From the NCBI GenBank assembly GCA_035489815.1, contig DATHJH010000042.1:1581-65580 (forward strand): DNA of 64,000 bases. Reading direction: 5' to 3'. The notes under the pieces were generated by a model. It made no database searches. It saw only the letters and a list, made by a program, of their open reading frames with translations, and had not been told where the DNA came from. Positions 2,346 through 63,439 of this stretch are shown here, piece by piece. Position 1 is the first letter of the stretch; every line of letters starts with the position of its first letter. The stretch comes from Candidatus Limnocylindria bacterium (GTDB lineage: Bacteria > Patescibacteriota > Saccharimonadia > Saccharimonadales > JAGQNK01). The position numbers and the translations under genes are program-made.

Positions 2346-2672
2346 ATGCTACTCACCACCACACACACTGTTCAGGACACAAAAGTCAGGGAATATGTTG
2401 GGATTGTCTCTGGCCAAGCAATATTGGGCGCAAATATTTTGAAGGACCTTTTGGCCGGTATACGGGATGTAGTTGGCGGACGCTCAACTGCCTACGAGAA
2501 GGAGCTCACCAAAGCCCGGGAAATTGCCCTCAAAGAGCTTGAGGAGCAGGCTAAAAAACTGAATGCAAATGGCGTGATTGGAATAGAGCTGGATTACCAA
2601 ACCCTTGGCCAAGGCAGCATGCTGATGGTTACAGCCAGCGGGACAGCAGTAAGGTTCGCGACTAAGAGCTAA
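2346..2672 (+). CDS. YbjQ/UPF0145-family protein (DUF74, heavy-metal-binding-like)
   Basis: Lies within ORF 2310-2672. AAGGAGG at 2333-2339 sits 6 nt before ATG 2346. [41 protein letters not shown]...[11 protein letters not shown] matches the YbjQ-type pattern as I know it. Confidence 0.8.
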
Positions 2673-2763
2673 TCCAATTCTCCCTGTTATAAGCAAAACT
2701 GAAGCAGCTGCCTTGATTTTGGTAGACCTTCAGTTTTGGCCGACAGGGAGGATTGGGTTAGCT

Positions 2764-2933
2764 CTAAGAACCCATTCCGAATCTCGCTTCTGATACCAAA
2801 AGTGATCCATTTCGAGCGACAATTTGTTTTGATTTCACTGGCGTAGCCATAGTTACGGCCGTGAAATTAGGGCGAATTGACGCCGGAATGGGCGGTTTTG
2901 GGACAGAATTGGAGATTTGGAATGGGTTCTAAG
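2764..2933. mobile_element. MITE-like element with 22-nt terminal inverted repeats
   Basis: ctaagaacccattccgaatctc (2764-2785) pairs with gagatttggaatgggttctaag (2912-2933) at 20 of 22 positions, one of them a G.U pair. The 126-nt interior has no ORF and contains a further hairpin (ttcactggcg...cggccgtgaa). Confidence 0.35.
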
Positions 2934-2962
2934 GCCTAAGCTCCCATCCTGACGGACATGGG

Positions 2963-3122
2963 CTGACCCACGTGCACTTTGTCATCCTGGGCCATGTGCT
3001 CAGCTTGACTGGGTATTGATTCAGAATCCAGTGGCAAAAATTGACTCCTTAAATGGACTGGATGCCGCATCTAGTGCGGCATGACAGGAACGGGGGTGAA
3101 TTTTAAAGTGCATGTGGGTCAG
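2963..3122. repeat. Inverted-repeat element, copy A of a 3-copy family (arm core TGACCCAC-N3-CACTTT)
   Basis: ctgacccacgtgcacttt (2963-2980) is the reverse complement of aaagtgcatgtgggtcag (3105-3122) with one G.U position. An inner gtcat/atgac pair lies at 2981-85 and 3081-85. The element is flanked by the 13-nt direct repeat cggacRtgggctg (2953-65 and 3123-35). Confidence 0.55.
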
Positions 3123-3164
3123 CGGACGTGGGCTGGCGAGTGCTAAACCTGTTACAATAACCTT

Positions 3165-3521
3165 ATGATTATCGAGCTGCTGCGCTGGTGGTATGGCCCA
3201 GGGTGGATTCTGGCGTTCAAGCGGATAAACACCCGCACGGCGAACGTCGCCCACGCCTTTTCAGCAGGTACTTTGCTCAAAACACTTTTTGCCCCGTGGA
3301 AACGCATCCAGTACACCGGCAAATCTTTTGACGCCAAGATGCATGCCATGATGGACAACCTTGTGTCCCGCACCGTTGGCTTTGTTGTCCGCCTGTTTGT
3401 GCTGATTGCGGCGCTGGTGATGATTGCCGGCAGCGTACTGCTTAGTACCGCCATTGTTGTAGCCTGGCCACTGGTGCCGCTGTTGATTATATTCAGCCTT
3501 TTCAGGGGAATTGCCGGATGA
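3165..3521 (+). CDS. small membrane protein (118 aa)
   Basis: The ORF has two long hydrophobic segments (VGFVVRLFVLIAALVMIAGSVLL, IVVAWPLVPLLIIFSLF). TACAAT at 3153-3158 lies 6 nt upstream of the ATG. The gene is directly followed by the Clp-like ATPase gene. Confidence 0.6.
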   Translation: MIIELLRWWYGPGWILAFKRINTRTANVAHAFSAGTLLKTLFAPWKRIQYTGKSFDAKMHAMMDNLVSRTVGFVVRLFVLIAALVMIAGSVLLSTAIVVAWPLVPLLIIFSLFRGIAG

Positions 3522-6060
3522 ATCCCGTTACAACCCAAAAGACCTACAAACTGTATCTATACATACGAACCATGCAGGCGTGTTCAACCGTTATTCAATG
3601 GCTGGAAGGGAAGTGGGTTGTAACGGGATGAACGGCACGTCCTTAAACCTTGGCAGCGTACGGGCTAAAAAGGCCCGGTTGGCTCTGCGCCTTAAAAAGG
3701 CCGGATACCTGGCGTATGCATCCGTTGGAGTCTTAGGCGGCCTGACTGCTCTGTATCTGTTGCTCCTGGAAAAGAACAAGCTTGGGTATCTGACGCTGGC
3801 CGCAGCGCTGTATGCACTCATGTGGGTGGTGTGGTTCAAGACTGAACTGGTCAAATTACCGCCAAAGAACCCCGGCAACAGCGTAGACGACCTGTTGGAC
3901 GCTGACTTTCTGGCCAAGCTCAAAAACCCGGTGACACCGCGCAGTGCCTGGGGTGGCCTGACTGGCCACTGGCAAGAGATATTCATCACCAACCGCTTGC
4001 AGCTGGATCCAAAGCTGGTTGAAACAGTGCTAAGTGACCGTGAAGCAGACATGGACCAGGTCTGGCAGCTGGCCCGCAAATTGCAATCTGCCCATGACCC
4101 CAATTCGCTCAGTGCCGGGACCGTTACGACCGCCCTGATTCTGTCGTCACCCGAGCTCACTGAGTTCCTTACCACACAAAACATCCGGCCGGAGGATACC
4201 CTCCAGGTCTTTGATTGGCTCAGCCGCGTGTTGGCCTACCAACAGCTGCCCAAACCGTATTTTGGCGGGATTGGTCGGGATTGGGCCTTTGGCTTTACGC
4301 CCAACCTGGAACGCTTCAGCACTAATATAAGCGCGCAAGTACAGGGCGGCGCTGGCCATGCCCACTTTATGTCGCGCAGCAGCTCCATAGACGCCATGAT
4401 CAACAGCCTCAACCAGGCGAGCGGAGGCATAGCTATAGTTGGTAACACCGGTATAGGCAAAACCTCTGCAGTCTATGCCCTGGCTGAACGGCTGCTGCAG
4501 GATAAATCCGTTGGCAGCATTCAAGACCACCAGGTCGTAGCGCTGAATGCGTCAGTTATATTGTCCGCTGCCAAGCAGGATCTGGAACGGACTATGCTGA
4601 TGCTGTTTGGCGAGGCTATGCAGGCCGGCAATATGATTGTCTTTTTGGACGAGGCCCAGCTGTTTTTCCAGCAAGGCGTCGGATCCTTTGATCTGTCGCA
4701 AATCCTGTTGCCGGTGCTGCAGAACCGCCGGCTGAAGCTGATCTGCGCCTTTAATACGACCGACTTCCAGCGGCTCAAAGTTTCTAATCCCGCATTAGCA
4801 GCAGCACTCACACCCGTCGTCCTGCCAGAGCCACCCCAGGCAGAAGTCCTTAAAATCGTAGAAGACAGCGCCCTAGGGATAGAACACCGCACCAGGACAG
4901 TCATCACCTACGAGGCCGTCCGCGAAGCCTACCGGTTAAGCGGACAGTATGTGCAGAATATGGCTTATCCAGGCAAGGCCATCAGCCTGTTAGAGCAAGC
5001 CACCTCCTACGCCGACAATACGGTCCTCACCGCCGTGAGCGTGCAACGTACTGTCGAAAGCACGCTGGGCGTAAAAGTCGGCGGCGTCCAGGGCGAGGAA
5101 GCCGATACACTCCTGCACCTGGAGGACCGTATACATGAACGCATGATCAACCAAACTAGGGCAGTTACCGTTGTGGCAAGTGCCCTCAGGCGGGCCAGGG
5201 CAGGGGTGGGCAACACTAAACGGCCGATCGGTAGCTTTCTGTTTCTCGGGCCTACCGGCGTGGGAAAAACAGAGCTAGCCAAGTCCCTGGCCGCAACCTA
5301 CTTTGGCGATGAAAAGAACATGATCCGCCTGGACATGAGCGAGTACCAGCAGCCAGGCGATGTCAGCCGCATGCTGTCGGACGGCAGCCAATCGGAAAGC
5401 CTGTTGTTGGCCATCCGCAAACAACCTTTCTCTGTGGTACTGTTGGACGAGATTGAAAAGGCGCACAGTAGCGTGCTTAACCTGCTGCTACAGCTGCTGG
5501 ACGAAGGGCAATTAACTGACATCAACGGCCAACCAGCCAGTTTCCGCAACGCGATTATCATTGTGACCTCCAATGCCGGAGCCAATGACATCATTGAACG
5601 CATTACCAAAAACCAGCCGCTGGAGGAGTTTGAACGGCCGCTTATCGACAAACTCATAGCCAGCGGCGTCTTTCGTCCGGAACTGGTCAACCGTTTTGAT
5701 GAAGTCGTACTGTTCAGGCCGCTCAATCAGCAAGAATTAGGACAGGTAGCGCTGCTGATGCTGGCAGAGGTTAACCGTAACCTGGCTAACCAAAACGTCA
5801 GTGTACAACTGACCCAGGCCGCGCTGGATAGTCTGGTCCGGCAGGGCTATGACCCGCAGTTTGGCTCCCGCCCCATGCGCCGTGTCATTCAGCGCACCGT
5901 AGAAGACGCCGTGGCCCAAAAAATCCTCAGCGGCCAGGCCGGCCCCGGAACAAAAATTCTGCTGGATTTACCAGACCTGCAAGATCAGCCGGCTCCCACC
6001 CCGCCTCCGCAGCAACAACCACCAATTTCATTCCCACCGTCGACACCACCTAAAACATAG
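3511..6060 (+). CDS. double AAA+ Clp/Hsp100-family ATPase with N-terminal transmembrane segments and a Pro-rich tail
   Basis: Two Walker A motifs (GNTGIGKTS, GPTGVGKTE) and Walker B-like IVFLDEAQ and VVLLDEIEKAH. RPELVNRFDEVVLFRPL is typical of the ClpA/B/C D2 module. The start is uncertain: TTG 3511, ATG 3598 or ATG 3628. Confidence 0.85.
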   Translation: MPDESRYNPKDLQTVSIHTNHAGVFNRYSMAGREVGCNGMNGTSLNLGSVRAKKARLALRLKKAGYLAYASVGVLGGLTALYLLLLEKNKLGYLTLAAALYALMWVVWFKTELVKLPPKNPGNSVDDLLDADFLAKLKNPVTPRSAWGGLTGHWQEIFITNRLQLDPKLVETVLSDREADMDQVWQLARKLQSAHDPNSLSAGTVTTALILSSPELTEFLTTQNIRPEDTLQVFDWLSRVLAYQQLPKPYFGGIGRDWAFGFTPNLERFSTNISAQVQGGAGHAHFMSRSSSIDAMINSLNQASGGIAIVGNTGIGKTSAVYALAERLLQDKSVGSIQDHQVVALNASVILSAAKQDLERTMLMLFGEAMQAGNMIVFLDEAQLFFQQGVGSFDLSQILLPVLQNRRLKLICAFNTTDFQRLKVSNPALAAALTPVVLPEPPQAEVLKIVEDSALGIEHRTRTVITYEAVREAYRLSGQYVQNMAYPGKAISLLEQATSYADNTVLTAVSVQRTVESTLGVKVGGVQGEEADTLLHLEDRIHERMINQTRAVTVVASALRRARAGVGNTKRPIGSFLFLGPTGVGKTELAKSLAATYFGDEKNMIRLDMSEYQQPGDVSRMLSDGSQSESLLLAIRKQPFSVVLLDEIEKAHSSVLNLLLQLLDEGQLTDINGQPASFRNAIIIVTSNAGANDIIERITKNQPLEEFERPLIDKLIASGVFRPELVNRFDEVVLFRPLNQQELGQVALLMLAEVNRNLANQNVSVQLTQAALDSLVRQGYDPQFGSRPMRRVIQRTVEDAVAQKILSGQAGPGTKILLDLPDLQDQPAPTPPPQQQPPISFPPSTPPKT

Positions 6061-6143
6061 GGATTGGTATTTGTTTAAAAGCAATGAGCTGAATGTAAAA
6101 TTACTTACAAACAAACATCGCTTCATGATGCTAAACTCTGCGC

Positions 6144-7427
6144 ATGCCTTTAGTAGAGCGTTTGAGAGCTAATGATTTTTTGCGGCACAATGCCATCTAT
6201 TTTTCGGGCTCTTTACTGATTGGAGCCCTGAATTATCTGTACTATCCGGTGCTGGGCCGGTTAATGCAGCCTACGGCTTTTGGCGAGGTACAGACCCTTG
6301 TTTCCCTGTTCCTGCAAATTGGAATATTTCTGTCGGTGCTGGCACTGGTGTCAATCAACATTATTGCCAACATGAAGGATGAGGTTCAGCGCAACCGGAT
6401 TAACCTGGAGCTGGAAAAGCTGGCGCTTTTAATCAGCGGCGTGCTGCTGGCAGCTTCTGTTATTTTAGGCCCGTGGCTGCAGAGCTACTTCCAGTTTGGT
6501 TCGCCGCTGCCGTTCAGCCTGCTGGCGCTGGCCGTTGTAGTAACGGTACCATTTACTTTTCGTACCGCCTATCTGCGGGGTAAGAAGCAGTTTAGCCGCA
6601 ATTCTTTGGCCTTTATCGTAGGGGCGGGCAGTAAGCTTATTTTGTCAGTGGCATTGGTAGCAATTGGGCTGAGCACGGCTGGCGCGCTTTTTGGGATAGT
6701 ACTTGCTCAACTGCTTGCCTTTACTTATGCGGCGCGCTATGCCCGGCGCTATGGTTTCACCGAATCCCTGCGCGGCCGGCTGTGGCGCATGCCGGATATG
6801 CGGCTGATTCGGCCAGAGCTTAAATACGCACTGTTAGTGTTAGCCGGGTCGTTGGCCGTAACAGTGCTGTATAGCGTGGATATTGTGGTAGTTAAGCATT
6901 ATTTTGATGTTCAGACTGCCGGGCTGTATGCCGGCGTTGCGACCGTAGCCCGCATTTTGTTTTTTTTGACAGCGTCTATTGCCCAGGTGCTGATGCCGTC
7001 CATTCGCTTGCAGCAATCGGCGGCAGAGAATCGACGAATACTGATCAAGTCACTTGTACTTCTGCTGGCCATCGGCGGCAGCGTTCTGGCCGTTTTTTGT
7101 GCGGTGCCAAAAATGGTAGTTGGTATTTTAATGGGTGAGTCGTACCAAACCTACGCCCACTTACTGCCCCGGCTGAGCGTGGCGATCTTTATTATATCGG
7201 TGCTGAATCTCATCGTCACCTACTATATGGCCCTTCGGTATTACCCTGCAGGAATCGTTATGGTCGCGGGTACGGCCATCACTTATATCTGGATGCACTA
7301 TTCGCATCACTCACTCCAAGCTGTTGTTGATAGCCTGCTGTATGGCAGCCTAACTATTCTGGTCCTGCTCAGCCTGTGGCTGGCCTGGACCCGCCGTAAT
7401 GTTTTAAGAGTGGGAGTCCTCCAATGA
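6144..7427 (+). CDS. MOP/Wzx-type polysaccharide flippase-like membrane protein
   Basis: 427-aa polytopic protein with roughly 12 hydrophobic helices. It is the first gene of a glycosyltransferase cluster, and its stop overlaps the next start. Confidence 0.6.
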   Translation: MPLVERLRANDFLRHNAIYFSGSLLIGALNYLYYPVLGRLMQPTAFGEVQTLVSLFLQIGIFLSVLALVSINIIANMKDEVQRNRINLELEKLALLISGVLLAASVILGPWLQSYFQFGSPLPFSLLALAVVVTVPFTFRTAYLRGKKQFSRNSLAFIVGAGSKLILSVALVAIGLSTAGALFGIVLAQLLAFTYAARYARRYGFTESLRGRLWRMPDMRLIRPELKYALLVLAGSLAVTVLYSVDIVVVKHYFDVQTAGLYAGVATVARILFFLTASIAQVLMPSIRLQQSAAENRRILIKSLVLLLAIGGSVLAVFCAVPKMVVGILMGESYQTYAHLLPRLSVAIFIISVLNLIVTYYMALRYYPAGIVMVAGTAITYIWMHYSHHSLQAVVDSLLYGSLTILVLLSLWLAWTRRNVLRVGVLQ

Positions 7428-50545: not shown

Positions 50546-51247
50546 CTACTGTGCAGTTGCCGTCAATGTCAGGTTGAGGGTATAAGAATCTGCAGCCTGT
50601 TCGGCCGGAATTGTCTGTGAAGCAGTGACGCCCGTGAGGTATCCGCGCCATATGTCATTTGAGGTACCGCCAGCATTAACCAAAGTGATACTGTCCAATG
50701 TGCCTTGGTTAAACCCGGCGCTAGAACCAACACTAACGCCAGTCGTATTACAAGACGCACAGTCCGTCGTAATAGCACCGACCGAAGGGTTGACGGTGAG
50801 CTGGCCAGGTGTGGCATCGGCGTCACCGGCAACATCAGTACAGCCAGCTGTCGTACCAGTCGGGTCGTTAAAGTCAATGTTCTGCGTTGCACCACCGTTT
50901 GCCCACCGTGCAGTGGCGCCTCCGGTGGCGGCCAAGGCCAGCGTCCAGCCGTTGTCCGCACCATCCGTGTTTGTAACATACACGCGTTCCGTGCCAGTTC
51001 CGAGGGTTCCGGTAGAAGCACTACCGCCTGCCTGACATTCAAAGGAAAAGCTCTTAGCAGACATTGCCACTGCCGGACTGGCAACCGGCACACGACTGGC
51101 GTCCATAATATCCGTAGCCAAGGTGTTACCGCCGCTAATAACCTGGCTAAAGGTAGAGTTAGATGCCGCGTATACCGCACTGCTACCAGCAAACACCATA
51201 ACCACCGCCAATGCGATCGCCTGTTTTAATAAAGCAGTTTTTTTCAT
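50546..51247 (-). CDS. WxL-like secreted surface protein (233 aa)
   Basis: GAGGGGG precedes ATG 51247, and a signal peptide is present. NGWTLALAATGG (a WxL motif) and the C-terminal YTLNLTLTATAQ resemble the two-motif WxL domain of Firmicutes. It is paralogous to the C-terminus of the 852-aa protein. Confidence 0.6.
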   Translation of the reverse strand: MKKTALLKQAIALAVVMVFAGSSAVYAASNSTFSQVISGGNTLATDIMDASRVPVASPAVAMSAKSFSFECQAGGSASTGTLGTGTERVYVTNTDGADNGWTLALAATGGATARWANGGATQNIDFNDPTGTTAGCTDVAGDADATPGQLTVNPSVGAITTDCASCNTTGVSVGSSAGFNQGTLDSITLVNAGGTSNDIWRGYLTGVTASQTIPAEQAADSYTLNLTLTATAQ

Positions 51248-51466: not shown

Positions 51467-51484
51467 TCCCGGGTAGCTCAATGG
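51467..51484 (+). repeat. duplicate of the tRNA-Asn 5' end
   Basis: tcccgggtagctcaatgg matches tccggagtagctcaatgg at 51907-51924 in 16 of 18 positions. Confidence 0.6.
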
Positions 51485-51554
51485 GTTCTCTGCACCTAAA
51501 AGGACATACTCAGCCCGCTTGCGGTAGAGTAAAGAATACTCTACCGCAACGATT

Positions 51555-51836
51555 ATGCCCAAAGAAAAGCGTACATATGCAGACAGAAGAGAGTACTTTA
51601 TTATGGCGGTTTCAAAACGCCGCCGCAGGATTAAAGAAAAAGCGATCGAACTCCTAGGCAGCAGGTGTCAAGTGTGCAGATATGACCGCTATCAGGGAGC
51701 CTTGATTTTCATCACGTTGACCCAAGCACAAAAGAGCTTCGGCATTAGCGGCAATGGGCACTCCCGGTCATGGGAGCGAGTAAAAGAAGAACTAGCCAAG
51801 TGTGTACTGGTTTGCGCCAACTGTCACGGGAGATAG
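51555..51836 (+). pseudogene. decayed small HNH endonuclease gene
   Basis: The ORF stays open but reads ALIFITLTQAQKS where an alternative frame of 51704-51736 reads DFHHVDPSTKE, the expected HNH block. After CANCH the expected REI.AGL tail is again in another frame (stop at 51881-83). Confidence 0.65.
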
Positions 51837-51906
51837 GGGCAGGTTTGGTGGAGATTGACCGACCATTTACTCTAAAAGACTGATACGATACAATATACGG
51901 TGTTGT

Positions 51907-52246
51907 TCCGGAGTAGCTCAATGGTAGAGCGATTGGCTGTCAGTTGGCAGCGCACCTGAGTAATCAGGTGATGAAAACAGGGTGAATTGCAGGAAACCTA
52001 CATCCTCGCAGAGGACACGGCAATCTGCAGCCAAGCTAGAAAGAGCAAAAGTTCATTAATGAACTGAGGTTTTCTAGAAGGTTCAGAGACTAGGGAGTGA
52101 GACTCAACGATAATCTCCCCGCGAGCGCCCTGCATCCTACGTAGCTTTATGCGAAGGAGGATGATGAAATAGTCCACGCTCCTGCGAAAGCAGAAGGTCT
52201 AAGTGTAACCAATAGGTTGCCGGTTCGAGTCCGGCCTCCGGAGCCA
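51907..52246 (+). tRNA. tRNA-Asn(GUU) interrupted by a group I intron (exon 1 51907-51940, exon 2 52206-52246, CCA encoded)
   Basis: The joined exons give a canonical cloverleaf: acceptor UCCGGAG/CUCCGGA, D arm GCUC-AAUGGUA-GAGC, anticodon arm AUUGG-CUGUUAA-CCAAU, T arm GCCGG-UUCGAGU-CCGGC, discriminator G73 and CCA. Confidence 0.8.
51941..52205 (+). ncRNA. group I intron (265 nt, no ORF), probably of the tRNA-intron (IC3-like) type
   Basis: P1 forms between exon GCUGU and intron GCAGC with a U.G pair at the splice site. P10 forms between intron GUUG and exon-2 UAAC. Other marks are a P2 hairpin with a GUAA loop (51953-70), AGAGACUA at 52085-92, a GAAA-capped hairpin at 52182-93 and a terminal G at 52205. 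Confidence 0.75.
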
Positions 52247-52353
52247 AAGCAAGCAGTCAAATAGTGAGACCGAGTTCTGTGACCGGTTTCTTCGTTTGAC
52301 TCCTTGGTGCCAGGAAGTTATTCATCAATGCAAAAACAGCCAGTTTTGGTTGG

Positions 52354-52377
52354 AACCGTCCGGAAGGGCGGTTTTTT
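52354..52377 (+). terminator. rho-independent terminator downstream of the tRNA
   Basis: aaccgtcc ggaa gggcggtt forms an 8-bp stem and is followed by TTTTTT. Confidence 0.7.
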
Positions 52378-52502
52378 GTTATTTACTTCAGTTATTTGGT
52401 TCCGAAGGCGACCCGTTCCTGTTGCGGGAACCAAGCAGGCGATAAGGAGACCGAGTTCCTAGATCGGTTTACTCAAATCCACATAATTCCAAGAAAATAA
52501 TC

Positions 52503-53144
52503 CTATTCTAGGTATAGCTTAGAGAATTTTTTGCCATCAATAACTTGCAGCACCGATCCATCGCCAATAGGGCTGCCGTCTGGCATGGTAGAAAATGTAT
52601 CGATACACCACACTCCATGTTTAACTTCATAACAGGTATCGGAAGGGGTATGCCCGAATACTTGAGGTATATTTTTGTATGTAATACTGCCGCCAGGTCG
52701 TGCCCAAAGAGGGCTTGTGTCATTCCATAGGCCAGTCACATCTTCTGCGCCAGACCATTCGTTTGCTATGCCAGCGTGAGAATAGGTAACGCCATCAATT
52801 TCGATAATAACAGGCAGGCCAGCCAGCCACTCCTTCAGTTTTTTATTTTCGGGCGCATTTATTAAAGTGTGTGTTATTGGGTTATAGCCGGTTTGAAATG
52901 ATGGTGTATCGTAAACATAGATATAATCATGATTGCCGAGTACTAAGCCAACTTTATTCTTATGCTTAATCTGCAGATCTCTTAGTGACTTCCAGGTGTT
53001 TAGAGTATTTTGCGGGCTAGCACTAAAGTCATCTGCAAAATCACCACAGAAAACAACCTTATCATAATCGTTAATGACTTTGGAGACTTTCTCAATAATC
53101 CAGATCTTCGTGTGGATGTCGCCAATTGCCAGTATTTTTCCCAT
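52503..53144 (-). CDS. calcineurin-like metallophosphoesterase (PrpE/ApaH-like)
   Basis: The motifs GDIHTK, GDFADD, GNHD and GH(T)P appear in the canonical order. Confidence 0.8.
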   Translation of the reverse strand: MGKILAIGDIHTKIWIIEKVSKVINDYDKVVFCGDFADDFSASPQNTLNTWKSLRDLQIKHKNKVGLVLGNHDYIYVYDTPSFQTGYNPITHTLINAPENKKLKEWLAGLPVIIEIDGVTYSHAGIANEWSGAEDVTGLWNDTSPLWARPGGSITYKNIPQVFGHTPSDTCYEVKHGVWCIDTFSTMPDGSPIGDGSVLQVIDGKKFSKLYLE

Positions 53145-53172
53145 GCCTACAGTATATCCCGTGGATCACTAG

Positions 53173-53526
53173 TTACGCCTGCTTGTGCAGTCTACGTATG
53201 CGCTCACGTACAGATTCTTGATATTGTGCAGGGTTTTGCATCTGGTGATAGGCACGAACAGCAATCACCTCAAAACGATCGTCATCTACAAGATACACAA
53301 TTGCTACTTTATGATTTTGCATCTGAACTTTGCGCACATCCGGATCGCCTTTGAATACGGCATTGGCTCGTGGCAAGTTTCCCAAGTTAGCTACGGTTTC
53401 CATAGCTTCATCAAAAAACCTCACCGCCGATTCAGCATCCACCAGCTCTTCATAAAATGCCATTAGCTCTGCAATATCGTTCTCGGCATCTTCTGTAAGA
53501 TTGACGCTATACTTTTGCACCAGCAA
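53173..53526 (-). CDS. ParE/RelE-family type II toxin
   Basis: 117 aa. YSVNLTEDAENDIAELMAFY...NLPRANAVF...VAIVYLVDDDRFEVIAVRAYHQ fits the ParE pattern. It overlaps the upstream small ORF by 20 nt. Confidence 0.7.
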   Translation of the reverse strand: MLVQKYSVNLTEDAENDIAELMAFYEELVDAESAVRFFDEAMETVANLGNLPRANAVFKGDPDVRKVQMQNHKVAIVYLVDDDRFEVIAVRAYHQMQNPAQYQESVRERIRRLHKQA

Positions 53527-53716
53527 GTTCCTGATATTTCTTTAAAATATCTTTCTTGGCCTGACTGAGCGGTATACGGTTTTTAGGATTTTTAGCAAGT
53601 TTAATGCGTCGTTCCAACTCAAGCCGAAACTCTTGGCTATTTTCGTCTACATTAATAACTTTGCTATTACTCATAGCTTTTATTTTATCACATTCCATGC
53701 ATAAAATATACGCCAA
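53507..53716 (-). CDS. putative antitoxin of the ParE-like toxin
   Basis: Small ORF directly upstream of and overlapping the toxin gene. The likely start is ATG 53674 (MSNSKVINVDENSQEF...), giving 55 aa. Confidence 0.5.
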   Translation of the reverse strand: MAYILCMECDKIKAMSNSKVINVDENSQEFRLELERRIKLAKNPKNRIPLSQAKKDILKKYQELAGAKV

Positions 53717-53732
53717 GATTTGACAATTAAAA

Positions 53733-53806
53733 GGGGTAAGCTAAAGTAAAACGAGCCTAAAATCAGGCGGTAATATTCGCTGGTTCGAATCCCGCCCCCG
53801 GAGCCA
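53733..53806 (+). repeat. degenerate tRNA-like relic ending in ...GGTTCGAATCC...CCGGAGCCA (copy 2 of the tRNA 3' end)
   Basis: 74 nt with a T-arm (one mismatch), a 3' acceptor strand and CCA, but only 4 bp of acceptor stem and no canonical anticodon arm. 53779-53832 is about 80% identical to 52219-52272. Confidence 0.6.
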
Positions 53807-53963
53807 GACCAAGCAGTGAAAAAGGTAGACCGTGCCTATGACTGGTTTCCCGATCCCGGGTTCTGTGAGTGTTCTAGCTTTACGTGACTCTCGTTTTTCA
53901 TTGGCTCAGCAGCCATAAACGGCTCGCTACCTCACTGGGGTTGCCGTGCTATCATTGGTAACT

Positions 53964-54478
53964 ATGCAAAAGTTCAGCCAAAAATACGCCGTCATACAAT
54001 TACTCGAAGACATGGAGGAAGGAGCCGAGTTTTCTGGTGACCGTTGGCCGCTCCACGTTACGATCGCTGATACACTTGCCGTTGATTGGAACAAAAACGA
54101 TTTACGCAAAAAGCTGGAGGGGCTGCTCGCCAGCCTGAAACCGGCTACAGCAACCAGCGACCATGACGAGTTCTTCGGGCCGGAGAAACAGACCCAGGTC
54201 ACAATATTGGACATGAGCAAAGAATTAGTCGACCTGCACTATAAAGTTATCAAACTACTGGAAAGCGCCGGAGCCGTGTTTAATGACCCGCAGTACGCAA
54301 GGAAGGCTTTCGGGCTCACGCAACCGTCCAGCCGCATGCACGCGTTAACAAAGGTGATGTGGTTACCTTCAAGGCACTCACTATAGTCGATATGTTTCCA
54401 AACAGCGATCCTTACCAGCGGAAGATACTTAAAACCATGAAGATCGGCCGCGGCCACTTGCGTCCTGAAGAGAAGTAA
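53964..54478 (+). pseudogene. 2H-phosphoesterase (LigT/2'-5' RNA ligase-like) gene with a frameshift
   Basis: The first H-x-T-x motif (RWPLHVTIAD) is in ORF 53946-54386. The second (FRAHATVQ) appears only in another frame, which is open from 54287 to the stop at 54476-78. Confidence 0.55.
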
Positions 54479-54496
54479 GTTTTGGAAACCCGTACC

Positions 54497-55258
54497 TCAA
54501 GCCTCCCAAAGCCGCCTGGGATTGTTACCATAGGAGGTGTCTATACATATGCCAAGCTCAGCAAGCTTGGCGTCCGCAATTTCAACCGGATGGAAGGCAT
54601 CTGTAGGCAACCTGTAGTGCTGTGCCCTGGAGACATAAAAGTCAAAATAACTATTGCGTTCGGGCGGCCCTGCAAAGTAAAGGCCGGCTTTATCAAGATT
54701 ACCCAAAACTGTCTTGGCCAACCCCTTAACCGGTACAAACGTCTTGTATACGTTGTCCCAATATTCCCGCCCTTGGCTTGGTTCATCAAGCAGCTTCTGA
54801 GTCCGGTCATCCGTGGTGCCCTGGCTGTCTTCACCATATATAGGCCCTGTCACAAAAACCACAAATTCAGGATTGGTAAGCACCATGGTTTGTTCGGCAT
54901 GCTTACGCCTGGCATAGTCTCCCAGCGAAGTGGCGGCAGCTAATGATCTGTTGCAGAATGCCGCGTCCGACGAAATATATACAAACTTCGTTTCATGCAG
55001 TTCGTCCAGCAAATCTGCAAAAGGATCGTCTGACACAGGGTATTCCTTTCCTGGCCAGGCCGTCCATATAACAGCATCCGGTTTTTGATCGGTAAGCGTA
55101 TTCCAGGTAGTTCTATCTTCAAGCTTGAACCTGGCAAGGCCGGCGCTTTCCTGCGAATGAAACGTCCCAAGCGCCTCATAGCCCATGGCGCGTGTTTGAT
55201 GCAGTATTTCTGATCCCAAGTAACCAGTCGCGCCGACAGTCAAAACTTTCATGTCCAT
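54497..55258 (-). CDS. NAD(P)-binding atypical SDR (NmrA/epimerase-like)
   Basis: ATG 55258 yields MDMKVLTVGATGYLGSEIL, a Rossmann GxxGxxG motif. The ORF track extends it to 55318. Confidence 0.7.
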   Translation of the reverse strand: MDMKVLTVGATGYLGSEILHQTRAMGYEALGTFHSQESAGLARFKLEDRTTWNTLTDQKPDAVIWTAWPGKEYPVSDDPFADLLDELHETKFVYISSDAAFCNRSLAAATSLGDYARRKHAEQTMVLTNPEFVVFVTGPIYGEDSQGTTDDRTQKLLDEPSQGREYWDNVYKTFVPVKGLAKTVLGNLDKAGLYFAGPPERNSYFDFYVSRAQHYRLPTDAFHPVEIADAKLAELGICIDTSYGNNPRRLWEA

Positions 55259-55324
55259 AGCATAGCAGCATTCTATTGCCTCTTGAGCAATTTCAAACAA
55301 ACGGCAACCTGCTATCATAGCATC

Positions 55325-56080
55325 ATGAAACAGAAACTATTGGCATTTAAAAACCGATGCAATCGGCTTACGGCGCGACTAAAAAATATTGACGTCTCAA
55401 ACAGACGGCACCAAAAAATGCTGCTAGGTACCGGGTTTGGAGTTCTTGTAGCGATTGCTTTGCTCACTGCGGGCATAGTACGTCTTAACAAAAGCCCGGC
55501 ACCGGAATCCGTGCCTTCACCCGGCACCACTGCTACAAACACAGGGCAACAAGCTGCTGAACCGCCCAGCCCATCGTCAGACACAGGCGGTACCAGCAAC
55601 CCAAGCAAGCCTCCTGCTCAACCCGGGTCCAAATCGGTCCCGGCCGGCCTCAACAACTCTTATAAGATAGCCCTGCCTGCTGGCTGGAGCGAAGTTTCGG
55701 GACCGACATATGGCGGGTGGCACGCTGCACTCAACACCTTTAGCGACGGGACCAGAAGCCTGGCCGTAATTGTAAACCTTGAATTCTTTGACCCGGCAGG
55801 ACCGCCAAGGCTAGATGCCAATTCAAAAGGAGAGGTTGGTGTACTAACGAGGGCAGGGGACAAAGTTGCCTTTGACCCGTCAAGTATTGTCTTCTGTGAC
55901 CCAGACCCAAAAAGCAACTGCGGAACGGGGGACGGTGAAACACAGCTCATATTGGGCCTCAGTACTATTTATGGCAACTCCTATTCCTTCATACTGCTCA
56001 GCGATGAACCGGAATCAATCAGCGAACTACACAATTTCGACGCTATTCTCAATTCAGTCACGTTAATAAAACCAAACTAA
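55325..56080 (+). CDS. membrane-anchored extracytoplasmic protein with a Pro/Ser/Thr-rich linker
   Basis: From ATG 55325, the TM helix LLGTGFGVLVAIALLTAGIV is followed by a low-complexity linker and a ~150-aa domain. No family recognised. Confidence 0.5.
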   Translation: MKQKLLAFKNRCNRLTARLKNIDVSNRRHQKMLLGTGFGVLVAIALLTAGIVRLNKSPAPESVPSPGTTATNTGQQAAEPPSPSSDTGGTSNPSKPPAQPGSKSVPAGLNNSYKIALPAGWSEVSGPTYGGWHAALNTFSDGTRSLAVIVNLEFFDPAGPPRLDANSKGEVGVLTRAGDKVAFDPSSIVFCDPDPKSNCGTGDGETQLILGLSTIYGNSYSFILLSDEPESISELHNFDAILNSVTLIKPN

Positions 56081-56135
56081 AAGAGGGTCTGTCGGTAAAA
56101 TCCCCCCCAGAGTAGGAAATTACTATAAAGAGCCG

Positions 56136-56209
56136 TGAGACACCAGAAATAAAGTGAGCCTAAAATCAGGCGGTATTTGAGTGTAGCTCGAATCCAGTCC
56201 CCGGAGCCA
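56136..56209 (+). repeat. degenerate tRNA-like relic (copy 3 of the tRNA 3' end)
   Basis: 56156-56175 is identical to 53753-53772 (gagcctaaaatcaggcggta). The last 22 nt (...tcgaatccagtccccggagcca) match copy 2 closely. A strong terminator follows directly. Confidence 0.55.
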
Positions 56210-56224
56210 AGCCACGATAGAGGA

Positions 56225-56256
56225 AATCAGAACTGTTAACGCAGTTCTGATTTTTT
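56225..56256 (+). terminator. rho-independent terminator
   Basis: aatcagaactg ttaacg cagttctgatt forms an 11-bp stem and is followed by a T-run. Confidence 0.8.
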
Positions 56257-56401
56257 GTATAGGCAGGCTAGCATTGAAACCAATCAATCATTTTATCTCT
56301 GTATACTTTTCAAATCCTGTCTAATCAAAATTACGACTTGCTCTATTGTTGTGAGCCAACCATGTCTTTAATTGCTTCACGATATACTGCATACTATTTG
56401 T

Positions 56402-57592
56402 ATGGATAAAAACGATATAAATGCGTTGCGTATAGCGAACTTTGTGAATACCACAAAACCTAATGGCAATAGATTAGCCACAACGGTCTACCTTGGCAAA
56501 ACAATTAAAGACAAGACTCACAGTAAGGTAAATGATTTCCTGCTACGGTGGCTAGACAAAGATGAAAAAATTATTGCCGTGGTTCAAGCAAATCGTTTCA
56601 AACCACAGGTGGGTGGTCTTATACTGACTAACCGCCGCTTACTTACATTGAATAGTCTAATCATAAAAATTGATAAAATAGTTGATGAAGTGCTTGCTGA
56701 TGATGCTTTGAATTTCATCCACGAGAAGGGTTTTGGCAAAGCCACGAAGCTTTATGTAATTAAAAAAGATGAAACAAAGGTATTCATAGGTTCAATAAGC
56801 AAAGAAGATGCAGAAGTATTACCTAGCTTCTTGCCTCAAATGTCAGGCGCACCCCAGTCCATTGTAGAGAAGATAAGCTCCGCGAAAACAGTCGAGTCTG
56901 ATGCTAAAATGCAGGCTTCAGTTGAAAAGGCACATGAAAAGGAGACGCAACAAGCGCACAAGAAAGAAGAGCGTTTAGCGGGAAAAGCTGATAAGCAAGT
57001 TGTTAAGCAAGAGCGTAAAGCAGCAGAACTTGCGGCGATTAAAGCTCGCGGCAGACAGCTTGGTTGGGCTCAACTTACATATAATGGTGGTTTCGGTAGC
57101 GATTACAAGTCCAATAAAACCGCCAATTTGGAATGTTATGAAAATGAAGTTTTGTTCAAACACCGTAAGGCACCAATTACCATTCCTGCAAACCAGATTA
57201 CGGGTTTTGAAATTACAGGTCAGAAACAGACCACTACAAATAGTCGTATCTCCGTTACTCGCATGGTAACGCTAGGCGTATTTTCACTAGCAGCACCAAA
57301 GCGTAATACTGTTACAACAAAAGAAGCGCATGTCCGTATTACACTCAAGGATGGGCGACAGTTATTCTTCCATACAACTACTGCTGCACAGGAAAAAATA
57401 CATCGCAAGCTGGCTGATGCCATATCACATTACAGTAGGCTACAGTCAACAGAGGGCGGCAAGCAACAACCACAATCCATGCACTCAGTGGATGCAGCCG
57501 GTGAGATTCTAAAATTTGCAGAACTAAGAAAGCAGGGGTTATTGACCGATGATGAATTTGAGGCAAAGAAAAAGCAGTTACTAGGGCTTTAG
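56402..57592 (+). CDS. PH-like-domain protein with a coiled-coil and C-terminal SHOCT domain
   Basis: The C-terminal AGEILKFAELRKQGLLTDDEFEAKKKQLLGL is a SHOCT motif. A central Lys/Glu-rich coil is present. The ORF track starts at TTG 56372; the first ATG is at 56402. Confidence 0.7.
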   Translation: MDKNDINALRIANFVNTTKPNGNRLATTVYLGKTIKDKTHSKVNDFLLRWLDKDEKIIAVVQANRFKPQVGGLILTNRRLLTLNSLIIKIDKIVDEVLADDALNFIHEKGFGKATKLYVIKKDETKVFIGSISKEDAEVLPSFLPQMSGAPQSIVEKISSAKTVESDAKMQASVEKAHEKETQQAHKKEERLAGKADKQVVKQERKAAELAAIKARGRQLGWAQLTYNGGFGSDYKSNKTANLECYENEVLFKHRKAPITIPANQITGFEITGQKQTTTNSRISVTRMVTLGVFSLAAPKRNTVTTKEAHVRITLKDGRQLFFHTTTAAQEKIHRKLADAISHYSRLQSTEGGKQQPQSMHSVDAAGEILKFAELRKQGLLTDDEFEAKKKQLLGL

Positions 57593-57792
57593 TAGGCAGA
57601 ATCTCGCTTAATTGCGATTATAACTTCATCTATCGTGGTGAGCCAATAAAAGAGTCCCTCATTGAGGTTCAACTTTTAAGTGCTTTCGTGAAACTATTTG
57701 CAAGGCTGGTGATTGCTCTCTTGGAACCCGTTCTAAGCACAGACGCCTTGTTGCAACTAGAGTAGTCCGCAAACAAACTGGTATACTAGCAG

Positions 57793-60256: not shown

Positions 60257-61438
60257 TTACGCCTTACTGAAAGAAAGTATCGCCTCTGTGCGCATACGGT
60301 TTGTTAACGTTGAAGTGTTTTTCGAAGACGGGGGAGGTAAATAGCGCCTATTTGCGGGCAACTCACGCTCATTCTCAGATACCAGCCGTAAGCAGGCAAT
60401 CTCCGCTGCTGCTGTTACTGCCATAGTGTTTTTGATAAAAACTCCTTTTAGACATGAATTGCCGACCACCAGTAGGGCACGTCCGCCAGGCTTCAGGACG
60501 CGTTCAATTTCCCTCATCAAAGCCACCATATCTAATAAATACCTATTGAACATACCCTTCTCTTTAGAGCCAAGCTGCTCGTAAAACTCCATCTTTTGTG
60601 TCATGGCCTCTATTGTTCCGTCAGAGACATCTGAGTCGGGGCGCCTTTCTGCACCAATGCTTGTACTGCGGATTGTACGCAAATTAGCCAAACTGTGCCC
60701 TAACCACACTAGAGCCAATTTGTGCCCCCTCATATAATCAATTGCATTGAGGTAGGGAGGTGAAGTTATTACCATATCTACTTCAGCGTCAGATACGCCG
60801 AGATTGCGCGCGTCAGCCCTGCTGACCCTGGCAAGTGCAGTACTAGCTTGTGGTAATCTCGACGCCAATAGCTTTGCTGACTTTACGAAATTCGGAAGAA
60901 CTTCGTACTCATTGGTAAGCGTTACACGATGTGGGCGGCTATGTGAAGTATCCCTAGCCAAAGATGCTCCTCGTTCCTTAGTGATAATCAATCTACTGAC
61001 GGCAACTTTAAGAAATGCTTGCAATGAGCCACCATAGTTACTATTTATAAGCATCATGAGCCTGCGTAGATCATCGATTTGTTTTTGGGCAAACCAAAAG
61101 TCTATGAATTTTTGCGTCTCTGCGTCGTCATCGATCCAGGGTAAGTAGGTGTCTTCAAGAGGTAAGTTCCGAGCTTCTTCGGCCACTTTTATTGCTGCGC
61201 TCATTGCTTCTTCGATGTCTATCGGAGTAGTGTTGACTCCTGCAATAAGTACCGCCATAGGGTCAAGGTCACTCCCTATAGCCTCTATGCCGCATTCAAT
61301 TGCCATACGAAGTGTGGTGCCAGAACCGCACATAGGGTCAAGCACAATTGAAGTAGCAGGCAGTTTTTCACACTCGGCCAATGCTATTTCTGGTGCCATT
61401 CTGGCGGGGAACGGATGGATAGGTTTTAGTTTCTTCAT
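60257..61438 (-). CDS. SAM-dependent DNA amino-methyltransferase (N6-adenine or N4-cytosine), motif order X/I ... IV
   Basis: HPFPARMAPEIA...VLDPMCGSGTTLRMAIECGIEAIGSDLDP (AdoMet motif) is at residues 8-60 and ITSPPY (catalytic motif IV) at residues 224-229. The spacer between them is about 185 aa. Confidence 0.8.
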   Translation of the reverse strand: MKKLKPIHPFPARMAPEIALAECEKLPATSIVLDPMCGSGTTLRMAIECGIEAIGSDLDPMAVLIAGVNTTPIDIEEAMSAAIKVAEEARNLPLEDTYLPWIDDDAETQKFIDFWFAQKQIDDLRRLMMLINSNYGGSLQAFLKVAVSRLIITKERGASLARDTSHSRPHRVTLTNEYEVLPNFVKSAKLLASRLPQASTALARVSRADARNLGVSDAEVDMVITSPPYLNAIDYMRGHKLALVWLGHSLANLRTIRSTSIGAERRPDSDVSDGTIEAMTQKMEFYEQLGSKEKGMFNRYLLDMVALMREIERVLKPGGRALLVVGNSCLKGVFIKNTMAVTAAAEIACLRLVSENERELPANRRYLPPPSSKNTSTLTNRMRTEAILSFSKA

Positions 61439-61558
61439 TTAGTCCAAGTATACTTATGCTTGCCGGCGATTGACATACCTTATCTTTGAATACTGAAGGA
61501 TGCTGGTATATAGTGCAAGAAGTAAGCATCAATTAAGCTAAACAGAGAGCGTATTGAG

Positions 61559-63439
61559 ATGTCAGAGTTTGATATTAACAAGTTCAAGGGTGCAGCCGTT
61601 GAACATGCAAGTTTCCGATACGAGGACAACCTGAAAGCCCTTAAGGGTAGGGGTCTTTGGACTCAAGGCCTTGAGCAGGCAGTCGAAGGCTCGATCAAAA
61701 ATATCTCACATGAAGCAACACGCTCATTCGTAATCTACGGCGAGCCACAGAGTGGTAAGACCGGCATGATGATCGCATTGACCGCACGACTTTTAGACGA
61801 CGGCCACAAAATGATCATCGTGTTACTAAACGATTCTGTGCAGCTTCTTGAGCAGAACCTTGAGCGATTTGCGCGCTCTGGTCTCGATCCCGCTCCAAAG
61901 CGTTTTGCAGAGATAATGGATCCGAGCGTGGAGCCGCATAAGGGCAACTGGGTCATCTTCAGTAAAAAGAACGCCAGTGATCTAAAGAAGTTATTGTCGA
62001 GAATTGATACAATCCCCGCCCGAGTGGTTATAGATGATGAAGCAGACTATGCATCGCCCAACGCTAAGATAAATCAAAACGAAAAAACGAAAATCAACGC
62101 TCTTGTTGAAAAATTAATAGGCAAAGACGGAATCTACATTGGCGTAACTGCAACGCCGGCTCGTCTCGACTTAAACAATACGTTTGAGAATGACAACGAA
62201 AAATGGGTAGACTTTCCGCCCCATCCGCTATATACAGGGCAAGATGCGTTCTTCCCCACTGATAAAGCACACTCCGGCGATATCGATAGTCTAGACTATC
62301 ATCTCGTACTGCTACCTGAGGATCATGACGAGCCTAAGTTTTTACGCAAAGCCCTGCTTAGCTTTTTGGTCAACGTTGCCTACCTGAACCTCTACGAGAA
62401 CGAGAAAGAAGAAAATTACAGTATGCTCGTACACACAAGCGGCAAGAAAGTAGATCACTCCGAAGACTACAAACAGATCGTAAAGGCGCTCAATGCGCTC
62501 AAAGATGAGGATAACTCAAAATACGAAACCTACTTGAAAAGCCTGTGGGAAATAGCACGGGGTCGCTATGAGGGCAAGGAAGACTCAATAACAAAATATG
62601 TCAGGAACAATATCGGCCGAAACAATATTGTAGTCATGAACAGTAACACTGCTAAGGCCGCCGCAGAGTACAAGTCCGCCACCAGCCCTGCGTCTCTATT
62701 CACTATTGCCATTGGAGGTAACATTGTTTCTCGTGGCGTGACCTTCGACAACTTATTGTCGATGTTCTTCACTCGCGATGTGAAGCATAAAATACAGCAG
62801 GATACATACATCCAGCGGGCAAGGATGTTTGGGACGAGGGGCAGCTATCTTAAATACTTCGAGCTTCATATTCCTGACCAGCTCTACCTGAATTGGCAAA
62901 AATGCTTTGTCTTTCATCGACTTGCACTATCAGCAATCCGTTCAGGCCAAGGAAGCCCAGTATGGCTTGAGGATCGCAAGGTCTCTGCCGCCTCCTCTTC
63001 TAGCATTAACAAAACAACTGTAGTACTTGAAAGCGGCGAAATGAGCTGGCAAATCTTCTCTTATGCTCCAGGGATTGACGAAGGGCTAAAAAAGGACTTG
63101 AGCTCCACTCAAAAGCTGGCGCTGCTTAAATCACTAGTAGATGATAGTTGTCTGCCTGAGTACGTTATCGATTTCATTAGGGATTTCAGCCCCTACGGCG
63201 CAGAATCGTTGGCTATCCATTCTACCCAGACAATAGACAAGTATGAAAGTGCTGATGTAGAGAACATCCAACGTAGAAAAGGTTTCATATCTAGTGAGTA
63301 CCTAGAACGACAAAAATATCCGCGAGCTATACATCACATCAAGGTGATCAAAAACAATCAGGGGCGTGCGAGATTCTTCTATAAATATGCACCTGACGTC
63401 GGCAATATAAGGTTCCTTAGAAACCGACGTGCAAGGTAA
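61559..63439 (+). CDS. Z1-domain P-loop ATPase (putative restriction/defence component)
   Basis: GEPQSGKTG (Walker A), VIDDEADYAS (Walker B/DEAD-like), YIGVTATP, SMLVHTS and IGGNIVSRGVTF...QDTYIQRARMFGTRG match the Z1-domain family (PF10593) as I remember it. Confidence 0.7.
   Translation: MSEFDINKFKGAAVEHASFRYEDNLKALKGRGLWTQGLEQAVEGSIKNISHEATRSFVIYGEPQSGKTGMMIALTARLLDDGHKMIIVLLNDSVQLLEQNLERFARSGLDPAPKRFAEIMDPSVEPHKGNWVIFSKKNASDLKKLLSRIDTIPARVVIDDEADYASPNAKINQNEKTKINALVEKLIGKDGIYIGVTATPARLDLNNTFENDNEKWVDFPPHPLYTGQDAFFPTDKAHSGDIDSLDYHLVLLPEDHDEPKFLRKALLSFLVNVAYLNLYENEKEENYSMLVHTSGKKVDHSEDYKQIVKALNALKDEDNSKYETYLKSLWEIARGRYEGKEDSITKYVRNNIGRNNIVVMNSNTAKAAAEYKSATSPASLFTIAIGGNIVSRGVTFDNLLSMFFTRDVKHKIQQDTYIQRARMFGTRGSYLKYFELHIPDQLYLNWQKCFVFHRLALSAIRSGQGSPVWLEDRKVSAASSSSINKTTVVLESGEMSWQIFSYAPGIDEGLKKDLSSTQKLALLKSLVDDSCLPEYVIDFIRDFSPYGAESLAIHSTQTIDKYESADVENIQRRKGFISSEYLERQKYPRAIHHIKVIKNNQGRARFFYKYAPDVGNIRFLRNRRAR

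Follow-up and report, generated by a model that had tools for sequence, protein, structure and literature searches.

Organization of the tRNA-Asn locus

The window analyzed here is a 64,000 nucleotide (nt) stretch of Candidatus Limnocylindria bacterium (Patescibacteriota; Saccharimonadia; contig DATHJH010000042.1, positions 1,581 to 65,580), in which an array of accessory DNA lies at a tRNA-Asn gene and is punctuated by repeats of a tRNA 3' end. Saccharibacteria have genomes of ~1 Mb and live attached to other bacteria, and their exchange of accessory genes is poorly understood. An earlier annotation of the window (the original prediction) read this array as two tandem islets left by serial integration into the tRNA 3' end. 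Comparison with other genomes indicates that the array is more than plain integration scars, as the repeats appear to be a conserved, portable tRNA-end mimic found across Saccharibacteria. Judged by sequence, the enzyme at the tRNA-Asn or repeat junction in relatives is a large serine recombinase rather than a tyrosine integrase.

From left to right, the array consists of a tRNA stub, a decayed HNH-like gene, the working tRNA-Asn gene (copy 1 of the repeat) with trailer A1, islet 1, a second repeat copy with a truncated trailer A2, islet 2, a third copy, a small element made of arms B and P2 (149 nt), a gene for a SHOCT-domain protein and a second P2 arm. It reaches 57645, beyond the limits of 52206-56256 first proposed, which leave out GAGCCA junctions at 56335-56358 and 57620-57645.

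The tRNA-Asn(GTT) gene is on the plus strand and is split by an intron. Exon 1 (51907-51940) was identified by reading the sequence and by running ARAGORN on the spliced product. The group I intron in the anticodon loop (51941-52205, plus strand; Rfam RF00028, 81.2 bits, E 4e-19) lies between U35 and U36, and exon 2 (52206-52246; sequence reading, pattern scan and ARAGORN) supplies the T arm, acceptor strand and CCA of copy 1, with the shared core GGAGCCA at 52240-52246. Both the covariance-model match and the splicing of the exons to a valid tRNA support the intron call. ARAGORN recognizes the spliced 75-mer as tRNA-Asn and misses the split gene; because of the intron, it reports no tRNA anywhere in the window.

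To count the repeats, the 64 kb were scanned with a degenerate pattern for the T loop and acceptor end (TCGARTCCNNNCNCCGGAGCCA, at most 3 mismatches). Exactly three places matched (52225-52246, 53785-53806 and 56188-56209, compared to 0.07 in shuffled sequence), the same three copies that the original prediction had listed, and all end in TCGA(G/A)TCC...CCGGAGCCA. Copies 1 and 2 are 81% identical on alignment (52219-52272 against 53779-53832, with 26 nt of trailer included), very near the ~80% counted by hand. Copies 2 and 3 are 76% identical across 68 nt and do share the exact 20-mer first noted there, GAGCCTAAAATCAGGCGGTA, which has no other occurrence in the window and none in shuffles. As also expected, neither is a complete tRNA: ARAGORN and Rfam make no call, and the 5' acceptor strand is absent.

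A conserved tRNA-end module in Saccharibacteria

The 20-mer and T arm of copies 2 and 3 are parts of a conserved module of ~100 nt, termed U-T, that comprises a sigma-70-like promoter, the 20-mer hairpin (U), a T arm and CCA. Its layout is TTGAcA, 16 nt and TAnnnT, followed by GTAAGCTAAAGTAAAGC, GAGCCTAAAATnAGGnGGTA, ~10 variable nt and TGGTTCGAATCCAGTCCCCGGAGCCA. Copy 2 occupies 53707-53806 (plus strand; nhmmer 90.8 bits, 10/12 matches in the promoter scan), with a promoter-like TTGACA-N16-TAAAGT at 53720-53747, the U 20-mer at 53753-53772 and the T arm plus CCA at 53779-53806. Copy 3 (56111-56209, plus strand; nhmmer 64.2 bits) has an intact U 20-mer at 56156-56175, a degenerate T arm and no remaining promoter part. 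Read antisense, the U hairpin (GCCTGATTTTAGGC with a T-rich tail; 53755-53768 and 56158-56171, minus strand) has a weak terminator score, and it would end transcription arriving from a recombinase gene placed to the right of U-T.

A profile search found 21 copies of U-T, two in the window and 19 on 16 contigs from other samples, with two copies on three of these contigs (L018 and L025 among them) and one copy each in 13 other loci. Scans for the 20-mer combined with the T loop found six metagenome contigs and eight assembled genomes, the latter labelled Saccharibacteria or unclassified 'bacterium'. Four of the 12 assembled-genome loci matching the pattern were discarded as chance, since they came from other phyla and had no flanking conserved sequence. 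The U-T pattern was not found in viral contigs. Paired copies are 1-2.4 kb apart in three genomes and sit in varied contexts, with spacings of 1.0-1.4 kb in L018 and L025.

Similarity between U-T copies stops at CCA, except among those with type-A trailers. Upstream of the tRNA-like end, copies 2 and 3 carry a 75 nt part that corresponds to nothing in the tRNA and is shared by different genera. The promoter part is retained in 17 copies (copy 3 is excluded); in these, TTGA and the T, A and final T of the second hexamer are conserved and variation in the second hexamer is confined to its middle positions, as a promoter is expected to show. The U-T body has a weak consensus fold (-5.7 kcal/mol) with no two-sided covariation, and we therefore do not claim a structured RNA for the body. 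The closing pair of the U hairpin varies between G-C, G-U and A-U, and many copies form, as read from the sequences, just 3-4 of the 5 T-stem pairs. Rfam searches of the window region and the U-T loci at permissive thresholds returned only the group I intron and genuine tRNAs. A two-piece tmRNA or split tRNA half was considered and rejected, given the Asn-type acceptor end (discriminator G; C3-G70 in the resident tRNA), the lack of a partner strand and the coexistence of intact tRNA-Asn genes.

The two window copies resemble copies from elsewhere more than they resemble each other. The L012 copy, from another metagenome, matches copy 2 at 87.7% identity, and the L017 copy matches the body of copy 3 at 87.3%, while identity between copies 2 and 3 is 57.5% across the whole module (107 columns) and 78.2% across the body. 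Because each is closer to a foreign copy, they are neither local duplicates nor displaced ends of the resident tRNA. The serial-integration proposal is not supported on this point; its premise that the tRNA 3' end is a site-specific integration point in this clade is upheld by the relatives described below. The original prediction had also named a conserved, expressed RNA at copies 2 and 3 as grounds for giving up the scar interpretation, and the U-T family supplies the conservation.

One contig carries a longer series of related sites. At L013 (2454-13401), a single U-T copy is followed by 10 co-oriented sites within 11 kb, each with a T-like sequence, G(A/G)GCCA and an A-rich start, and most continue as AAGTACTTATGCT. 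The open reading frames (ORFs) between them, judged by eye, include small pairs that resemble toxin-antitoxin systems (HicA/HicB-like; ribbon-helix-helix with PIN-like), and the layout resembles an integron array.

Trailers and arms exchange partners at GAGCCA

Two families of sequence, A and B, were found to begin where the tRNA or U-T ends. Trailer A starts always directly after GAGCCA. The copy behind the tRNA, A1 (52247-52480, plus strand, ~235 nt), was delimited by nhmmer, a terminator scan and alignment with five other loci, and contains a long hairpin (52247-52312), a terminator (52352-52378), a decayed T-like piece (52400-52429) and a second A start (52430-52473). A2 (53807-53855, plus strand; nhmmer 36.2 bits) has the left part of A only. 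The nhmmer matches at 52248-52298, 52430-52473 and 53807-53855 show that the recurring hairpin motif of the original prediction is real and belongs to this larger family. A is non-coding and is conserved over ~235 nt in six loci (the window, L009, L010, L018, L024 and L025), whatever its left neighbour. Its long hairpin has compensatory changes in 4 of 16 pairs, a second hairpin is present as well, and the module matches no Rfam family.

The placement of terminators was one basis for taking copy 3 as the original end of the tRNA gene, on the view that it alone was followed by one. The scan does not agree, as it places a strong terminator-like site at 52352-52375, downstream of copy 1. The terminator behind copy 3 (56225-56256) is part of the B arm (56210-56290, plus strand; nhmmer 50.9 bits), which forms the left end of a mobile B element. 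This arm also lies behind the intact tRNA of L006, the second tRNA fragment of L003 and a U-T copy of L024.

The right end of the B element is the P2 arm, TTATAACTTCCTCTATCGTTGT-GAGCCA, which pairs with B in three genomes. P2 arm 1 of the window (56335-56358, plus strand), related to TTATAACTTCCTCTATCGTTGTGAGCCA in L006 and L024, ends in GAGCCA and closes an empty B element of 149 nt. Elements with the same two conserved ends measure 0.45 kb in L024 and 1.2 kb in L006, and insertion points are found after a U-T copy or after a tRNA. P2 arm 2 (57620-57645, plus strand; 29 nt are 93% identical to L006 7150-7122) also ends in GAGCCA and is the last recognizable junction of the array. Since B is matched by P2, and a P2 arm is joined directly to a B arm at position 7211 of L024, B is the left arm of a small mobile element and not the original tRNA trailer.

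Left-hand and right-hand partners are reshuffled exactly at GAGCCA. The tRNA is joined to A in the window and to B in L006. U-T is joined to A at copy 2 and in L006, L009, L015, L018 (twice) and L025, to B at copy 3 and in L024, and to the end of a recombinase gene in L016, L017 and L025. Other arms are joined to A or B in L006, L010, L024 and L025.

Occupancy of the tRNA-Asn site differs among relatives

The gene upstream of the array (50546-51247, minus strand) has many homologues, and their contigs show variable occupancy at the tRNA. In the closest relative, L003 (94% protein identity), tRNA-Asn has no intron and is separated by ~170 nt (a terminator, then ~130 nt) from a second 3' fragment that is followed by B. 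The T loop of this fragment is split by a G+C-rich insert of ~60 nt (L003 1770-1850, reverse strand). In L006 (81% protein identity), B directly follows an intact tRNA-Asn as part of the 1.2 kb element, and a copy of islet 1 with a copy-2-like end lies ~3 kb further on at 87% DNA identity. The order in L016 is tRNA-Asn, islet 1 and a copy-2-like sequence in which the last 26 nt of the tRNA are exactly repeated.

The comparison with related genomes that the original prediction called for thus shows different occupancy in L003, L006 and L016. It had held that finding the same blocks elsewhere without the repeats would speak against integration scars; in other genomes the cargo blocks remain linked to the repeats. 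The metallophosphoesterase gene of islet 1 is at an equal distance from U-T in L006, L016 and L017, and in L025 a homologue of the 2H phosphoesterase of islet 2 is directly upstream of a U-T copy. After U-T and A, L006 encodes a 61-residue HTH_17 (excisionase-type) protein (3457-3642, reverse strand), followed by an AlwI-type restriction enzyme and methyltransferases (1143-3460).

A large serine recombinase sits at the junction in relatives

Directly to the right of U-T in L016, on the opposite strand, is a gene (5372-6886) for a 504-residue large serine recombinase, whose domains are Resolvase, Recombinase and a zinc ribbon. The final 11 codons of this gene read antisense through the T arm and acceptor end, and the gene next to it has a rolling-circle replication protein family match (Phage_CRI). 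L017 and L025 retain remnants of such recombinases on the right-hand side of U-T, in L025 beside the second copy. Homologues are 67-98% identical and all come from Saccharibacteria; in L026-L039, the recombinase gene overlaps a complete tRNA-Asn by 42 nt in antisense. The L038 element, which adjoins the tRNA, and the L016 element, which adjoins U-T, have 92% DNA identity.

GGAGCCA flanks each of these elements on either side. Four loci have a conserved P1 arm, GATTGAnTnnTGTAGGGG-GAGCCA, as the far end, which gives element lengths of 5.4, 6.0, 11.0 and 11.3 kb, and the P1 junction is followed by a terminator-like sequence that is different in each of the four. GGAGCCA is the only repeat present at both ends of the four elements, and no displaced T arm or tRNA 3' end was found within 10 kb on the far side. 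Crossover therefore falls within the final bases of the tRNA, and integration produces no duplicate of the T arm. For want of a displaced tRNA 3' end in those 10 kb, we dropped the idea that recombinase-bearing elements generate the U-T copies. A 10 nt match at a plausible element end in L032 (GAATCCAGTC) was put down to chance (~1.5 expected, by estimate), and the real right junction was found elsewhere.

The position of the recombinase gene would affect its own product. In L016, L026, L032, L038 and L039, the reading frame crosses the attachment site into antisense tRNA-Asn or U-T, and the protein of the integrated form has other C-terminal residues, 11-17 in number, than that of the predicted circular form (e.g. 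...SEWLRGEDSNLRPGD* compared to ...SEWLPLHHSIS...).

No recombinase remnant was found in the window by tblastn, and no recombinase domain is present among its 40 largest ORFs or those surrounding the islets. The scanned window ORFs also lack a Phage_integrase domain, in accordance with the original observation that no integrase remains. Among relatives, no tyrosine integrase was found in the few neighbouring ORFs scanned or in the precomputed Pfam calls for L003-L007 and L026-L039; most ORFs beside U-T in L008-L025 were only clustered against each other. That clustering gave an apparent link of a Fic protein in L013 to the recombinase, which we attribute to ORFs reading antisense through U-T; the L013 ORF has Fic and MarR-type domains and no recombinase domain. 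Viral contigs gave neither the recombinase protein nor the P1 arm pattern. The literature searched on Saccharibacteria with serine recombinases, tRNA-Asn or mobile elements contained no account of the module or of recombinases that target tRNA-Asn in this group.

Cargo genes and flanking sequences

Three of the cargo genes named in the original prediction were recovered by Pfam. Islet 1 encodes a metallophosphoesterase (52503-53144, minus strand; Metallophos, E 2.4e-11) and a ParE-type toxin (53173-53526, minus strand; ParE_toxin, 27.8 bits), with a putative antitoxin (53507-53716, minus strand) assigned by its position upstream of ParE and without a Pfam match. Islet 2 encodes a 2H phosphoesterase-like ORF (53946-54386, plus strand) that stays below threshold (2_5_RNA_ligase2, 25.3 bits against a cut-off of 27) and is a candidate pseudogene, an NAD-dependent epimerase or NmrA-like short-chain dehydrogenase (54497-55318, minus strand; Epimerase, 27 bits) and a membrane-anchored protein with no Pfam family (55283-56080, plus strand, from the ORF listing), for which a 251-residue gene is called on a contig of the same strain. 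The SHOCT-domain gene (56372-57592, plus strand; SHOCT, 28.3 bits) lies between the two P2 arms. The G+C content is 0.425 in islet 1 and 0.408 in 56210-57645, compared to 0.547 in the upstream core, a base composition that marks the cargo as foreign.

The left edge of the array holds a trace of an older tRNA gene. Homology between the window and L003 ends at 51467, exactly where an ancestral tRNA-Asn stub begins (51467-51484, plus strand); its 18 nt, TCCCGGGTAGCTCAATGG, are the same as the 5' end of the intact L003 tRNA-Asn. A perfect 13 bp hairpin follows the stub at 51519-51549. Between the stub and the working tRNA is the decayed HNH-like endonuclease gene (51555-51915, plus strand), recognized by CxxC and CxxCH motifs in ORF 51555-51836 and by an HNH core, LDFHHVDPSTKE, in a different frame from that ORF. 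The hand-repaired protein scores 17.9 bits against Pfam HNH, under the cut-off of 21.4. The intron is absent from all eight distinct related tRNA-Asn sequences compared (8/8), and the acceptor stem of the working tRNA reads TCCGGAG where relatives have TCCCGGG or TCCGGGG. The resident tRNA gene seems to have been replaced by an incoming intron-bearing allele, perhaps via endonuclease-driven homing.

Downstream of the array, 60257-63439 encodes a DNA methyltransferase (N6_N4_Mtase) and a protein with Z1 and ResIII domains. This region looks like a defence island, and the variable region may run to the end of the window.

How the array may have been assembled

With moderate confidence, we read ~51.5-57.6 kb as mobile DNA that piled up at the 3' end of tRNA-Asn by site-specific recombination with the core GGAGCCA, with the repeats as portable tRNA-end mimics and a large serine recombinase acting in trans as the likely enzyme. 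As recombination sites, the repeats would mimic tRNA-Asn in its T arm, acceptor strand and CCA, and copies 2 and 3 are instances of the portable U-T module, which is usually followed by the structured trailer A with its terminator. Short blocks without a recombinase (toxin-antitoxin, phosphoesterases, dehydrogenase, surface protein and SHOCT-domain gene) lie between the sites. In relatives the recombinase gene sits at the exact junction beside tRNA-Asn or U-T; that the same recombinase family moved the window cassettes, and the order of events, we infer.

Two versions of this model can be drawn, and every locus can be read by either. In the first, each block would bring a right arm (U-T or P2) and a left arm (A or B), with the newest block nearest the tRNA, as in staphylococcal cassette chromosome (SCC) arrays. 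In the second, U-T and A would be resident, possibly transcribed, and would offer an extra docking site beside which elements insert as they do at the tRNA. On their right-hand side the four P1 junctions have unrelated sequences, which suggests that the enzyme makes few demands on the right half-site, and a low requirement there would allow either version.

Several points weigh against recombination by such an enzyme. The window has neither a recombinase nor a remnant of one, which leaves the link to the enzyme with the relatives. Known large serine recombinases recombine attP with attB and are not known to recombine hybrid sites, so that repeated insertion at the same tRNA would need a relaxed right-half-site requirement, at which the four unrelated trailers only hint. 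Neither a free circular form nor a viral contig with the site was found. The recombinase-bearing elements end in P1 and not in U-T, and the similarity between P1 and U-T is not significant. The cargo genes lie in both orientations, unlike integron cassettes. Finally, U is promoter-like, and its conservation extends further from the crossover than a serine recombinase site should require, features that suit a gene for an RNA no less than an arm bound by protein.

A more far-reaching proposal, which we put forward tentatively, is that Saccharibacteria have an undescribed cassette system in which U-T with its trailer would be the recombination site of large serine recombinases, a counterpart of attC arrays, and in which the module might be transcribed as a tRNA-half-like small RNA.

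A somewhat unlikely alternative is that U-T with A is a resident small-RNA gene derived from tRNA-Asn (~200 nt as made, ~54 nt once processed at CCA). Elements that target tRNA-Asn would then land beside it, and the islets would be ordinary DNA between paralogues. Such a gene would account for the promoter signature kept in 17 copies, for similarity that stops at CCA apart from type-A trailers, and for a trailer hairpin with four compensatory pairs that is followed by a terminator. It would also suit the changing closing pair of the U hairpin (G-C, G-U, A-U) and the presence of the same element beside the tRNA in L038 and beside U-T in L016. The U-T body, on the other hand, folds weakly (-5.7 kcal/mol) without two-sided covariation, often has only 3-4 of 5 T-stem pairs, leaves its acceptor strand unpartnered and matches no Rfam family, and the occurrence of two copies 1-2.4 kb apart in three genomes, in varied contexts, also counts against it.

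We consider it improbable that the array consists of two islands serially integrated by a tRNA-targeting tyrosine integrase, with copies 2 and 3 as displaced ends and the integrases later deleted. The exact 26 nt tRNA repeat after islet 1 in L016 is the kind of long identity typical of such integrases, and the succession tRNA-A, U-T-A and U-T-B fits tandem related elements. The T loop with its stem is also reportedly a favoured core for tyrosine integrases, according to Williams in 2002. These arguments are offset by the 75 nt non-tRNA part of copies 2 and 3 with its cross-genus conservation, and by the closer match of both copies to those of other genomes than to the resident tRNA or to each other. 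In addition, trailer B, which was taken for the original one, itself has variable DNA at its border and a P2 arm as its partner, no tyrosine integrase was found in the window or in the neighbouring ORFs examined at related loci, and the sole recombinase seen at the junction is of the serine type.

Very improbable is an origin with no dedicated recombinase, in which tRNA-Asn and U-T act as homology arms for homologous recombination after natural transformation or for duplication and deletion by unequal crossing-over: although the shared stretches (26 nt in L016, ~100 nt of U-T, ~235 nt of A) suffice for occasional RecA-dependent exchange, and the window and L006 share 87% identity over islet 1 and U-T against 75% over the neighbouring core gene, the junctions fall exactly at GAGCCA even with low flanking similarity, elements with two specific arms (B and P2; recombinase gene end and P1) point to site-specific events, and homologous recombination leaves arms unrelated to the target unexplained.

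If the site-specific reading is correct, it would account for the transfer of toxin-antitoxin, restriction and surface-protein genes in small blocks from one lineage to another. U-T would give annotators of these genomes a sequence marker of variable regions, and the site and enzyme together could serve as a natural landing pad for genetic tools in bacteria that are difficult to manipulate. More generally, the array shows that repeats of tRNA fragments are not always scars of the neighbouring gene.

Comparison with known systems

Tyrosine integrases are the usual enzymes at tRNA genes, and the array resembles the Islander-type islands that they produce in that direct repeats of the target tRNA's 3' portion (three in the window; the exact 26 nt in L016) separate accessory blocks and occupancy varies among relatives. 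It differs in that no tyrosine integrase was found in the ORFs scanned, and the repeats are a conserved module with a promoter-like element rather than copies of the resident tRNA. A distal repeat in such islands is the displaced tRNA end, whereas copies 2 and 3 contain the U part and have their closest copies in other genomes. The junction in those islands is in the T or anticodon loop, and here it is at the CCA end.

A change of protein C-terminus upon integration has been described in mycobacteriophages, mainly for the repressor encoded next to a tyrosine integrase (PMC8092301). In the present elements it is the serine recombinase itself whose frame runs across the attachment site, with the last 11-17 residues predicted to differ.

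Integrons and clusters of attC sites lacking integron-integrases (CALINs) are also arrays of short cassettes with a conserved site; toxin-antitoxin genes are often abundant in them, and some have no integrase close by. The 10 sites in 11 kb of L013 are a similar arrangement. The array in the window has genes pointing both ways and a site that mimics a tRNA end, and no integrase that could be the IntI tyrosine recombinase was found in the scanned window ORFs. The imperfect palindromes and R and L boxes of attC do not fit the sites, which are T arm and acceptor mimics with a weak fold.

Repeated docking sites for a serine integrase have a parallel in phiRv1, whose attB Bibb and Hatfull are said to have located in 2002 inside the REP13E12 repeat of Mycobacterium tuberculosis. 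There, too, attB is in a repeated chromosomal element that provides several alternative docking sites per genome. REP13E12 is a 1.4 kb repeat unrelated to tRNA, whereas the sites described here are mimics of a tRNA 3' end arrayed beside a genuine tRNA.

SCC elements of staphylococci are assembled in tandem at the 3' end of rlmH (orfX) by the large serine recombinases CcrAB and CcrC. Their repeats are ~15-18 bp, while those of the present array are tRNA mimics of 26-100 nt with promoter-like features, a tRNA gene as the target and an ultra-small Saccharibacteria host. The two systems would be alike in having a large serine recombinase at the 3' end of a conserved gene, a site that is regenerated and tandem units between short repeats, and in both, many units are without a recombinase and would depend on one supplied in trans.

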